64,000 nt of DNA from Eledone cirrhosa (lineage: Eukaryota): the NCBI GenBank assembly GCA_964016885.1, contig OZ024747.1, forward strand, positions 58,528,001 to 58,592,000. The letters are read 5' to 3'. The position numbers were made by a program, and so were the translations under genes. Below, piece after piece: positions 7,784 to 54,490 of this stretch (its first letter is position 1; each line of letters opens with the position of its first letter). A model generated the notes under the pieces. The model did no database searches. It was not told the origin of the DNA and was given only the letters and a program-made list of their open reading frames with translations.

Positions 7784-7977
7784 CTTTTTTTGTTTAATAT
7801 AAGGAACTGCTTCATTGTTTTATTCATTATTTTTTTAATATTTTATCTTTACTCTGTATTCCGTTTATCTTTCACCGAAAGTGATTTTTGAATGCATCTC
7901 TTCTTTCCATGATATCCGGATTACATTGAGTTCTTCATACGGATTGGAAACTACCGTAAACTTTTGGTAGATTTATC

Positions 7978-8062
<85 letters not shown>

Positions 8063-8208
8063 GACAATTGTTTCATTGATCAGGTGAGTGTAGAGGTCGC
8101 AAATCGCTTGAAGTTGCGTCACTCGATCTCCATACGTTAAAACTATTCACGACTCAGAGTACTCACAACCTCTAACTGGATTACCTATAACAATAACTTG
8201 TTATGCCA
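8063..8208. mobile_element. PLE fragment: inverted HHR 3' half plus tail, between (TA)n tracts
   Basis: Minus strand reads GAAA-CAATTG-TC at 8063-8074; GAGTACTC at 8157-8164; tail resembles 52940-52990. Confidence 0.6.
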
Positions 8209-8245
8209 TATATATATATATATATATCTATATCTATATATATAT

Positions 8246-8304
<59 letters not shown>

Positions 8305-39390: not shown

Positions 39391-39847
39391 TATTGAGCAG
39401 TTCAATGATTTGCCTGGTCATACCATGAAATTAAACACATGCTACGTTTAATAATAATCACTTTCTCATCGCCATTGTAGAGAGAGAGAGAGAGAGAGAA
39501 GGGAGAGAGGGGAAAGAGAGAGAAAGAGAGGGGTGTAAGCGATGGCGAGTGGAATAGAGAGGAAAAGTGAAAGTAAGAGAGAAATAAAAAAGGGGAAAGC
39601 TGGGGAGAATGAAAGAGGAGGAACGTAAGAGAGAATGAGAGAGAGAGTCATGAATTGTTCAAAATATGTGCGTATATTGGTGTATGTATTCATCTATGTT
39701 ATGGAGCTGTGTATTTGTGTATGTATATTCATGTATGTATGTATAATAAATATATACATAGATACATACATGAATATAGTATATGTGTATTATCTATGTC
39801 TGTTTGTAGAAGCCATTTTTATATTAAATGTTGTTATATATATATAT

Positions 39848-40060
39848 ATAAATGGAATAGAATGAAACGAAATTTCATTTCTCACTCTTAGTACGGCACT
39901 TACTTAAATGTAAGTATGTATGTATGAATGCGTACATACATATATGTGAGAAATGAAATTTCGTTTCATTCTATTCCATTTATCGTTTTCGGTGTGCGCG
40001 GCCGACTGACCTCACGCGATATGCAAATTGGGCTGCTCAGCCGTTAATGTGCATAAGGAG

Positions 40061-40065
<5 letters not shown>
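39848..40065 (+). mobile_element. Fold-back short copy of the tandem-HHR family (50917-51995)
   Basis: Inverted 39848-39885 versus 39946-39983; tail resembles the reverse complement of 51340-51430. Confidence 0.85.
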
Positions 40066-44574: not shown

Positions 44575-45400
44575 ATTACAACGTTACACAGATGTATCAC
44601 ATCTTTACCATCTTACACAGATGTATGCCAGTATTACCATGTTACACAGATGTATGCCAGTATTACCATGTTACACAGATGTATGCCAGTATTACCATGT
44701 TACACAGATGTATCCCAGTATTACCATGTTACACAGATGTATCCCAGTATTACCATCTTACACAGACGTATCCCAGTATTATCACGTTATACAGATGTAT
44801 CCCAGTATTATCATGTTAGACAGATGTATGCCAGTATTATCATGTTAGACAGATTATCCCAGTATTATCATGTTACACAGATGTATCCCAGTATTACCAT
44901 GTTACACAGATGTATCCCAGTATTACCATCTTACAAAGATGTATGCCAGTATTACGTATTACCATGTTACACAGATGTATCCCAGTATTACCATGTTACA
45001 CAGATGTATCCCAGTATTACCATCTTACAAAGATGTATGCCAGTATTACGTATTACCATGTTACACAGATGTATCCCAGTATTACCATGTTACACAGATG
45101 TATCCCAGTATTACCATGTTCATAGATGTATCCCAGTATTACCATGTTACACAGATGTATCCCAGTATTACCATGTTACACAGATGTATCCCAGTATTAC
45201 CATGTTACACAGATGTATCCCAGTATTACCCTGTTACATAGATGTATCCCAGTATTACCATGCTATACAGATGTATCCCAGTATTACCATGCTATACAGA
45301 TGTATCCCAGTATTATCATGTTACATAGATGTATGCCAGTATTACCATGTTACACAGATGTATCCCAGTATTAACATGTTACACAGATGTATCACAGTAT
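44575..45400. repeat. 29-bp tandem minisatellite, ~28 units
   Basis: CATGTTACACAGATGTATSCCAGTATTAC head-to-tail with no spacers. Confidence 0.96.
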
Positions 45401-49614: not shown

Positions 49615-50228
49615 TTATATATATACATTTATATATATATATACGAATATGTGTGTGTGGATATATATATAAATATATACGAGCGTGTGTGTGTGTGTGT
49701 GTGTCTGAGAGACAGAGAGAGAGAATGAGAATGTGTATGTGTGTATATATATACGTGTATCTTTATGTCTGTTTATATGCATATCTAAATCCATAACTAT
49801 GTATCGTGTTAGAAATTCCAGTTCACATTATTTTAGTTAAAAGAAATCTATCTTTCAGATAATGGCGGTAATAAATTTAAATATAAATTCAATAAAATCC
49901 AAATGAGGTGGTGGTCGGTTGGTAGGAATATCGTATATTGCAAATGGGAAGTAACTCCTCATGCCCCACACTTGTTTTGGCATAAACTCATCAACATGTT
50001 GACAATCGATCAAATCTTCGCATAGATAAGACCCTCCATCTAACAGTTATCTTCTTCCAATTGGAAACCAACAGAATATATGGGATTTACAAGTAATTGG
50101 GAAGACAATGAATTATTGATGATATCAGAGCAACGTCTATTTAGAAACCGAATAGCTGTTTTGTGGCAGTATATTTTGTCTGATATATATGTATGGATGT
50201 ATGTGTGCGCGCGTGTGTGCGTGTGTAC

Positions 50229-50312
<84 letters not shown>

Positions 50313-50713
50313 CTATCTGGCCCGTCCGGCTGGCGTCCGACTAGTGTACCGTCATTTTATCTTTTTAGGATTCCCTAGTTCAGCAGCCAGTACGTTAAAG
50401 AAAATAGATAGTTACAACAACAAAGGCTGAATAGAGAACACATTTTATAACAAACTTTACGATAATTTGTAAAACCATAATAGAAATTCCAAGTAACAGA
50501 AAATATATAAATTACATTGTTAGAGCCTCAGAGTATACAATATTTTTTGTTCGGCCCTCGGGAGCAAAGATGAAGAAATTGTTTGGCGAGCTCACCCTAG
50601 AGCATCCTACATACAATTGACCATGGGAGAAGCATGGTTTTTCCAGATGAAGGCCAGCCACTTTTATGGTTTGACCCTGAGTTTTGTTGATGGTAATTGC
50701 AAAGCTTAGTCTC
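50313..50713 (-). mobile_element. Helitron 3' end with PIF1-like helicase C-terminus
   Basis: RLSFAITINKTQGQTIKVAGLHLEKPCFSHGQLYVGCSRV..TKNIVYSEAL; GC-rich subterminal segment and ATAG|T end at 50313. Confidence 0.9.
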
Positions 50714-50883
50714 TCTCTTTGTCTAGTAACATTTTTTCTTCTGGATAATCTGATCTTGTGGCCAATCCGAGACGTTTTGGGTGGCATATCGGCAGCAACA
50801 ATGAGGATAAGCCGTCTGTGCTTTTGTGAAATAAATACGTTTGTTTATATTTTGTGTTTGTGTATGCAAAAATATCTGTACAC

Positions 50884-50922
<39 letters not shown>

Positions 50923-51033
50923 TTGAAAAAAATGAAAACGAAATTTCATTTCTCACTCTTAGTATGGCACTTACTTAAATGTAAGTATGTATGTATACGT
51001 ACATACATATATGTATACAGACGTACAGTAGCA

Positions 51034-51100
<67 letters not shown>

Positions 51101-51262
51101 GCATGCAGGTACACATACATATATGCACGCATCAGTTTAGCCGACGTTTATTATAACGCCGGCCGCTTTGTTCGTTTGTTTGTCAACAAAGCGAACAGCC
51201 TGAATTTATGCCATACGGTGTTAAGGCAACCACGTCACCTTTTTGTTCAACACTGAGACAGG

Positions 51263-51307
51263 AACGATGTACTAGTTTCAAGCTTGTTAGCTATCATCAG
51301 CACCGTT
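51263..51307 (-). ncRNA. Type I minimal HHR with canonical core
   Basis: AACGGTG-CTGATGA-t-AGCT-aaca-AGCT-t-GAAA-CTAG-TA-CATCGTT. Confidence 0.9.
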
Positions 51308-51541
51308 TACCCATCTGCCAGATAGTTGAACGTTCGAAAGTATATACTTTCCTTATGAAAATTAACGGCTGAGCAGCCTAATTTGCATATTGAGTGAGTT
51401 AAATCGGTCAGGCATACCGAAAACGATAAGTTGAAAAAAATGAAAACGAAATTTCATTTCTCACTCTTAGTGTGGCACTTACTTAAATGTAAGTATGTAT
51501 GTATACGTACATACATATATGTATACAGACGTACAGTAGCA

Positions 51542-51618
<77 letters not shown>

Positions 51619-51780
51619 GCATACAGGTACACATACATATATGCACGCATCAGTTTAGTCGACGTTTATTATAACGCCGGCCGCTTTGTTCGTTTGTTTG
51701 TCAACAAAGCGAACAGCCTGAATTTATGCCATACGGTGTTAAGGCAACCACGTCACCTTTTTGTTCAACACTGACACAGG

Positions 51781-51825
51781 AACGATGTACTAGTTTCAAG
51801 CTTGTTAGCTATCATCAGCACCGTT
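51781..51825 (-). ncRNA. Type I minimal HHR, identical tandem partner
   Basis: Same sequence as 51263-51307. Confidence 0.9.
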
Positions 51826-51893
51826 TACCCATCTGCCAGATAGTTGAACGTTCGATGCGTGCATATATGTATGTGTACCTGTATGCATATGTG

Positions 51894-51937
<44 letters not shown>

Positions 51938-51990
51938 TGCTAGTGTACGTCTGTATACATATATGTATGTACGTATACATACATACTTAC

Positions 51991-52048
<58 letters not shown>

Positions 52049-52055
<7 letters not shown>

Positions 52056-52355
52056 TAACAGATTAAAGTTTAAGCAAAAATTCGCTGCTTTGACCCTTAA
52101 CAGGATCTTCGGAAACTAAAAAAATCAATCTATGAACGCAGAAGTAAATATTTCGAAAAAAATTGCAGCCGAAGGATAACAGGAAGACAATACTTTGGTT
52201 CGTGAAGACGTTCCCTGGCAATGAACGTAAAAAAGCGAAGATCTACGTCATCAATGAGAACAATATTTGCTCAAGGGTCCTTATATATTTGATATATATT
52301 TATCCTTATCGAGCCCTCTTTCGATTTTAGTCTTCACATTTATTATTATTACTAA
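52049..52355. mobile_element. PLE insert: inverted arm plus forward tail
   Basis: 52049-52115 matches 54169-54233; 52262-52352 matches 11476-11567. Confidence 0.8.
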
Positions 52356-54074: not shown

Positions 54075-54326
54075 AGTAATAATAATAAATTTGAAGACTA
54101 AAATCCAAAGAGGGCCCGATAAGGATAAATATATATCAAATATATAAGAACCGTAGAGCAAATATTTATTAAAATAACAGATTAAAATTTAAGCAAAGAA
54201 TCGCTGCTTTCACTGTTAACGGGATCTTCTGAAAACTCAGTTACACACTATAAATTGTAAATCATATTTAAGAAGATCCCGTTAAGGGTGAAAGCACCGA
54301 TTCTTTGCTTAAACTTTAATCTGTTA

Positions 54327-54332
<6 letters not shown>
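54075..54332 (-). mobile_element. PLE fold-back element with decayed HHR-like core
   Basis: Tail 54075-54168, arms 54169-54230 and 54271-54333; AGAAGA-tcccgttaagggt-GAAA. Confidence 0.78.
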
Positions 54333-54458: not shown

Positions 54459-54490
54459 TTAACGTTTCGAACGTTAGTCCTTCATCAGAA
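54459..54490 (-). ncRNA. Minimal PLE-type HHR core with weak stem I
   Basis: CTGATGA-a-GGAC-taac-GTTC-GAAA-CG-TT. Confidence 0.6.

Follow-up and report, generated by a model that had tools for sequence, protein, structure and literature searches.

The window analysed here, a stretch of 64,000 nucleotides from the cephalopod Eledone cirrhosa (GCA_964016885.1, contig OZ024747.1, positions 58,528,001 to 58,592,000 of the forward strand), contains two hammerhead motifs in a non-coding tandem unit, which raises the question of what this element is and how it was copied into a 3.0 Gb genome that is rich in (TA)n. Our analysis indicates that it is very likely a young, V-shaped insertion into a (TA)n tract, belonging to a hammerhead tandem family of at least 10,000 near-identical copies, and that it likely represents a non-LTR retrozyme copied in trans by the reverse transcriptase-endonuclease of a Penelope-like element (PLE). 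The most informative part is its PLE-type anatomy, namely an inverted arm, two fixed 3′ ends and a (TA)n target, all of which were absent from the initial annotation of this stretch.

Anatomy of the insertion

Both hammerheads lie on the minus strand 518 nt apart (CUGAUGA at 51,818 and 51,300) and are identical in sequence, in agreement with the initial annotation. Hammerhead A, of type I, spans 51,781-51,825 and hammerhead B 51,263-51,307, with predicted cuts at 51,788/51,787 and 51,270/51,269, respectively; cleavage at both sites would release a 518-nt monomer (51,270-51,787, minus strand). If unit position 1 is set at the first base after the predicted cut, the main arm is a 5′-truncated 1.8-mer on the minus strand (50,918-51,855; unit 451-518, 1-518 and 1-362). 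The head-to-tail duplication described earlier, with the tail of copy A running into the start of copy B, was found as a continuous junction without a break. Because the aligned copies (50,918-51,337 versus 51,426-51,855) differ by four substitutions and by 10 nt of (TA)n, they do not represent a duplicated read.

The tandem unit had been assigned to the whole of 50,917-51,995; this was correct for the 1.8-mer, but the segment from 51,854 to 51,995 proved to be an inverted partial unit. This second arm lies on the plus strand (unit 137 to ~304) and meets the main arm 5′-to-5′, the two overlapping by 2 nt. As a whole, the element forms a V of two diverging arms, one ending at unit ~304 (site 1) and the other at unit ~362 (site 2), 58 nt apart, and both ends are fixed internal sites of the unit, away from the predicted ribozyme cut site. 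The 58 nt from site 1 to site 2 form a tail carried by the main arm only (50,918-50,976, minus strand), and a segment identical to it in unit position sits inside copy A at 51,426-51,484. On both sides the outer ends lead into (TA)n, at 50,886-50,917 on the left and at 51,996-52,050 on the right. There are also internal tracts, (TA)33 in copy A (51,545-51,611), located at the apex of a predicted ~150-nt hairpin, and (TA)28 in copy B (51,037-51,093).

A protein-coding ORF is absent, as had been stated: the reading frames of at least 90 aa across the element are TA run-throughs only, and the element lacks the ORF with reverse transcriptase (RT) and GIY-YIG domains between pLTRs that marks an autonomous PLE. 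The GC content over 50,001-52,000 is 0.33, within the low-GC range of retrozymes (<45-50%). At the sequence level, the window element fits the description of non-LTR retrozymes.

Other features were recorded in the same window. A Helitron helicase C-terminal fragment lies at 50,512-50,844 on the minus strand (best PDB sequence match Helraiser, E 1e-8; no Pfam match), and a Helitron origin of the element was rejected because this fragment stops 70 nt off, outside the (TA)n flank. At 39,840-40,065, an older V-type remnant of a related subfamily lies in (TA)n, with two short diverging arms around the tail region and no hammerhead. A hammerhead-like core at 54,465-54,488 (minus strand), with a G-C-type stem II, a minimal stem III and a stem I of only ~2 bp, is probably a decayed PLE-type motif. 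A further repeat abuts (TA)n at 52,050-52,110 and 54,170-54,330, shows an internal inverted arrangement at 54.2-54.3 kb and also flanks locus L034, and a minisatellite of 28 copies of 29 bp occupies 44,575-45,400.

The hammerhead motif and its conservation

The motif has a 7-bp stem I, an intact core, a 4-bp stem II with a U·U pair, an AACA loop and a GUA triplet. Stem II is closed by this U·U pair instead of G-C, and the G10.1-C11.1 pair is described as highly conserved in PMC4209133. Stem III was known to be palindromic; it reads ACUAGU, and the 6-bp duplex that it could form in trans was computed at -4.8 kcal/mol. The lowest-energy fold ties up the hammerhead core. A search of Rfam returned no match at the gathering score, since Hammerhead_HH9, with 21.5 and 18.5 bits, stayed below the threshold of 52, and a loose core pattern had four matches in the window compared to 0.83 expected by chance. 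Two further results were discarded: the Rfam miRNA matches on the TA tract are composition artefacts, and the monomer fold z-score of -12.6 is not usable as evidence, reflecting largely a self-complementary (UA)n hairpin.

The comparison between families supports the view that the hammerhead is under structural constraint. Among 10 related variants from four families, which do not represent independent events, compensatory changes on both sides occurred in 8 of 14 hammerhead pairs; none of 500 shuffles reached this value and slid controls were far lower. The palindrome of stem III is kept with different letters in related families (ACGCGU and ACAUGU). The U·U closure of stem II recurs in two sister families, with G-C or A-U at this position in others, and one autonomous PLE family of this genome has both the U·U closure and a palindromic stem III.

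Minimal, dimeric PLE-type hammerheads (PMC4209133; Lunse et al. 2017 via the review PMC6765202) are likewise of type I, with a short palindromic stem III suited to dimer cleavage, and are described in these sources as dimer-dependent and slow in vitro. They differ from the window motif in carrying G10.1-C11.1 and a stem II of 7-8 bp, as opposed to U·U and 4 bp.

A dispersed family of tandem units

An exact 37-nt core was found 10,333 times genome-wide, whereas the reversed control had no match; a wider motif had 40,975 matches and the marker of the window subfamily 420. The family is dispersed over many chromosomes at high copy number, as head-to-tail dimers to multimers of ~460-570-nt monomers. 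The search for other multimeric copies that the initial annotation had proposed thus returned multimeric family members, and its retrozyme-like classification is borne out by tandem non-coding units with a structurally constrained hammerhead in many dispersed copies. The loci mapped in detail were top matches or first-listed places and not a random draw, and many were picked by a motif containing the cut site. Long arrays contain internal duplications of 2-4 units that are post-insertion in appearance, and in other copies of the window family nested insertions have landed in the internal (TA)n tract.

The same two-ended V was found in families of 422, 466 and 311 nt. The sister family of 466-469 nt (L111, L201-L204, L220-L230, L236-L237 and L240) closes stem II with the canonical G-C pair and forms arrays that reach 33 units. 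An unrelated hammerhead tandem family of 311 nt (L131/L132/L161, L235 and L239) has identical units, the V shape and a ~33-nt tail, and one of its arrays is nested within the internal (TA)n tract of a window-family copy. A small palindromic element in (TA)n (L090:~7900-8250, L094 and L306) has a hammerhead-like core resembling that of the 311-nt family.

Arms end at two fixed sites, one per site

In a first set, we mapped 41 V insertions and 26 single arms. One arm ended at each site in 27 of the 28 V's in which both ends were canonical, and the remaining one had both ends at 362 (p 2e-7); 13 of the 41 V's had been excluded because an end was non-canonical, and in some of these it lay at a locus edge or a nested insertion. 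A position-ordered subset was mixed in 12 of 12 V's. The pattern was replicated at 40 further loci with 32 V rows, 10 of which were set aside: all 22 readable V's were mixed (21 independent after removal of one duplicated locus), and no same-site pair occurred. Overall, 48 of 49 V insertions with both ends readable had one arm per site. Canonical ends led into (TA)n in 83 of 94 arms, with 2-3 nt common to end and target. Similar sequence past the (TA)n on both sides, in inverted orientation, was seen at L172 and L035 only.

The 5′ ends, in contrast to these fixed 3′ ends, were scattered. They lay within 4 nt of the cut site in 1 of 108 cases in the first set and in 0 of 83 in the replication, and arms of the first set crossed the cut site ~211 times with no stop there; the choice of loci by a motif spanning the cut site weakens these counts for the main arms, but not for the partner arms. 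The usual template can therefore not be a cleaved linear monomer; this supports an RNA template of more than one unit, as under the earlier proposal of a circular or multimeric template.

Both arms of a V mostly stem from one and the same variant. In 24 of 37 V's, the distance between the arms belonged to the lowest decile of pairwise distances, and in two of the 37 the arms came from different subfamilies; in long insertions a private interruption pattern of the (TA) tract was found in every unit of both arms. In 7 of 27 mixed V's, neither arm was contained in the other; both arms must therefore have been primed separately, and a simple fold-back is excluded for these seven. Five short site-2 arms stopped at the position of the other priming site, 302-309 (first set: 3 of 36, p 0.04; replication: two), as expected if both primers sit on one RNA. 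Beside these two short arms, one 7-unit arm among the 27 arms of the replication set also stopped there.

A copy with clustered A>G changes

Clustered A>G changes are a signature of ADAR editing. At L328:3100-4200 (G000:C1, ~4.531 Mb), the hammerhead strand shows 15 A>G changes in one arm and 19 in the other, so that this copy likely passed through an RNA of that strand and is likely a hyper-edited RNA template written back into DNA. Its hammerhead core is broken, yet the copy was copied through. Among partly overlapping loci, 3 of 1,034 segments were flagged for A>G clusters compared to 0 of 1,019 for T>C; the third flagged case, L124, is weaker (8 of 15). A general sense-strand A>G bias first looked suggestive (19 vs 10, p 0.09) but fell away under a stricter test with 40 more loci, in which insertion-wide variants showed no significant excess (10 vs 5, p 0.2) and five of the ten came from L328.

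Penelope-like elements as the likely mobilizer

ORFs with RT and GIY-YIG domains are present in this genome, and its autonomous PLEs target (TA)n with two ends. All of their readable V pairs, 7 of 7 and 4 of 4, had mixed ends; these were read by eye, and pairs with an arm that runs on into a tandem were left out as unreadable. A very young autonomous family (L272-L305) has a 1,217-aa ORF, a 4,117-bp period, a ~46-nt tail and (TA)n targets, with 95 near-identical copies among the matches listed; its protein is homologous to RT and GIY-YIG PLE proteins, though it has no Pfam match at E 0.1.

A shared nucleotide sequence was not found among the loci compared. A blastn comparison of four retrozyme units with 15 PLE-bearing loci returned only independent insertions and low-complexity matches, at none of the GIY-YIG loci L051-L100 did the terminal repeat of the element itself consist of family sequence, and no homology to the pLTR of an autonomous PLE was detected among the PLE loci compared, which sample few PLE families. 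No PLE ORF lies in the vicinity of a solitary related hammerhead (L219/L232). Because the compared loci include no autonomous PLE with shared nucleotide sequence, we infer the mobilizer from the anatomy of the insertions.

That anatomy follows published descriptions. PLE insertions are reported as a partial tandem with an inverted 5′-truncated copy and a tail at one end, in (TA)n targets (PMC8557442, PMC3846280). For the Poseidon PAc protein, a predicted dimer, cleavage and extension of both strands are reported in vitro, with reverse transcription starting at two internal sites that bound the tail (PMC11167929). The window family shares with these elements V insertions, two fixed 3′ ends bounding a one-arm tail, an AT-rich target and a hammerhead upstream of the ends, but the window element has no ORF, its tail is 58 nt compared to 30-40, and homology to the PLE loci compared here is lacking. 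The strict pairing of one arm per site, as counted in this analysis, goes beyond the bulk data in PMC11167929, in which a difference in start sites between strands was absent and pairs were not resolved.

The window element works like a non-autonomous PLE dependant. The non-autonomous Chlamys elements, e.g. MRC1, are also PLE dependants with multicopy head-to-tail insertions; according to PMC8557442, their 3′ ends are similar to those of the autonomous partner, and canonical hammerheads are missing from most Chlamys elements.

Relationship to animal retrozymes

Animal non-LTR retrozymes (Cervera and de la Pena 2020, PMC7229834; Li, Clavereau and Pollet 2026, bioRxiv 10.64898/2026.07.22.740005) are described as non-coding, low-GC tandem units with a type I hammerhead per unit, occurring as dimers to long multimers in thousands of dispersed copies in genomes with PLEs, all of which the family analysed here shares. 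Its monomer of ~460-570 nt, 518 nt in the window element, lies above the range of 170-400 nt in PMC7229834 and within that of 51-972 bp in the preprint, and the internal (TA)n hairpin and the U·U closure of stem II set the window family apart from the published non-LTR retrozymes.

The preprint regards non-LTR retrozymes as PLE dependants, based on co-occurrence and pLTR homology and not on insertion ends, and its sampling comprises vertebrates, three insects and one anthozoan (bioRxiv 2026.07.22.740005). The words 'inverted' and 'microsatellite' are absent from the main text of PMC7229834. No report of a cephalopod retrozyme was found in the literature searched, which did not extend to subscription journals and Repbase/Dfam. 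Both the retrozyme class and its link to PLEs are already in print; the present analysis adds the evidence from insertion footprints and the almost strict pairing of the arm ends.

A model of insertion and its alternatives

Copy number, V anatomy, two fixed ends, hammerhead conservation, likeness to PLEs and the edited copy together point to a non-LTR retrozyme that is likely mobilized by a PLE in trans, with priming occurring twice per insertion. The tandem would be transcribed on the hammerhead strand, and neighbouring hammerheads would pair via the palindromic stem III and then cut, probably slowly or with the help of a protein. The monomer would be ligated to a circle, or else an uncleaved multimer would serve as the template; we lean towards the circle. 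The PLE enzyme, probably as a dimer, would cut a (TA)n tract on both strands. The two DNA ends so produced would each serve as a primer within the RNA, mostly within a single molecule, with reverse transcription starting at unit ~304 from one end and at ~362 from the other. The two cDNAs would extend a variable distance beyond the cut site, stop, and join 5′-to-5′ via short overlaps, resulting in two diverging arms with the 58-nt tail on one of them. We tentatively propose a stricter form, which is possible but rather doubtful, in which one dimeric PLE grips one small circular RNA at the 58-nt tail and primes both cut DNA ends, and two polymerases roll round the same circle to produce the V.

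The strongest competitor, a serious possibility that we nevertheless place short of even, keeps the double priming by a PLE and replaces the circle by an uncleaved linear multimer such as a read-through transcript. Here, the hammerhead would cut rarely or later, and long uniform arrays would derive from source arrays homogenized at the DNA level. This reading fits the reported insertion of PAc RNA in vitro, which is independent of hammerhead cleavage and unaffected by hammerhead mutants (PMC11167929), and the Xenopus retrozyme dimers, 8 of 9 of which were without cleavage and one of which was cleaved (bioRxiv 2026.07.22.740005). The U·U pair closing stem II, the edited copy at L328 and the 2-4-unit duplications within arrays point the same way, as does the V at L098+L231, both arms of which show the same succession of variants over three units (deletion, wild type, C>T), in register, which suggests either a heterogeneous multimer template or conversion between arms. 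It accounts less readily for arrays of 8+8 units with one private barcode, for arrays of the sister family (family D) in which all complete units are identical in both arms, and for 30 insertion-unique variants that are common to all units of their insertion. The compensatory changes that keep the hammerhead in non-coding families also speak against it, as do the circular RNAs demonstrated in coral, mussel and axolotl (PMC7229834). Circle and multimer templates may both occur.

The following explanations abandon double priming by a PLE. An improbable one holds that priming occurs once and that the inverted arm arises when the first cDNA folds back and primes itself, possibly on an antisense template (the Arkhipova 2013 model, PMC3846280). 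The near identity of the arms of one V is compatible with this, as are junction overlaps of at least 2 nt at 24 of 41 junctions compared to ~19% by chance, a count that alignment overlap can inflate. The 5′ ends were at most 20 nt apart in 6 of 41 V's, but distant in the other 35, and the six close pairs compare with 3.2 expected by chance. The non-nested V's contradict a fold-back in their own case; in addition, the two V's that mix subfamilies and the restriction of A>G clusters to the hammerhead strand argue against it.

Even less probable is a SINE-like repeat that a LINE moved through twin priming of the L1 type. LINE insertions, too, can be 5′-truncated and inverted, and a LINE-type RT ORF exists in the genome (L097); however, both arm ends are fixed internal sites without poly(A) or a repeat tail, the same end pairing is found in the autonomous PLEs of this genome, and the sense strand has no B-box-like match. 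Local DNA duplication, a satellite or an assembly artefact with an incidental hammerhead is refuted as the origin of the family, even though some arrays grew by 2-4-unit duplication, by the dispersal over many chromosomes, the fixed ends in (TA)n, the differences between copies A and B at four sites and in TA length, very deep DNA-type read cover in a public run, possibly of the source sample, the compensatory hammerhead changes and the hyper-edited copy.

Implications

Two open questions meet in this family, namely what mobilizes animal retrozymes and how PLEs make tandem, inverted and tailed insertions. Our preferred reading of PLE-driven double priming places a PLE footprint on a retrozyme family that has no sequence homology to the PLE loci compared. 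As indicated by the 48:1 ratio in the pairing of arm ends, a single event uses both of the RT start sites known in vitro, one for each target strand. The genome is also a resource, in which the ~10,000 young copies of this family coexist with at least three sister families and with intact PLEs that are very young. If a dimeric PLE indeed works on one circle, the PLE tail and the inverted arm would be products of one coupled reaction that is tied directly to retrozyme circles. Several unrelated circles, one of them with a copy of its own target, would then ride on currently active PLE machinery, and circles would at times be A-to-I edited before their return into DNA.
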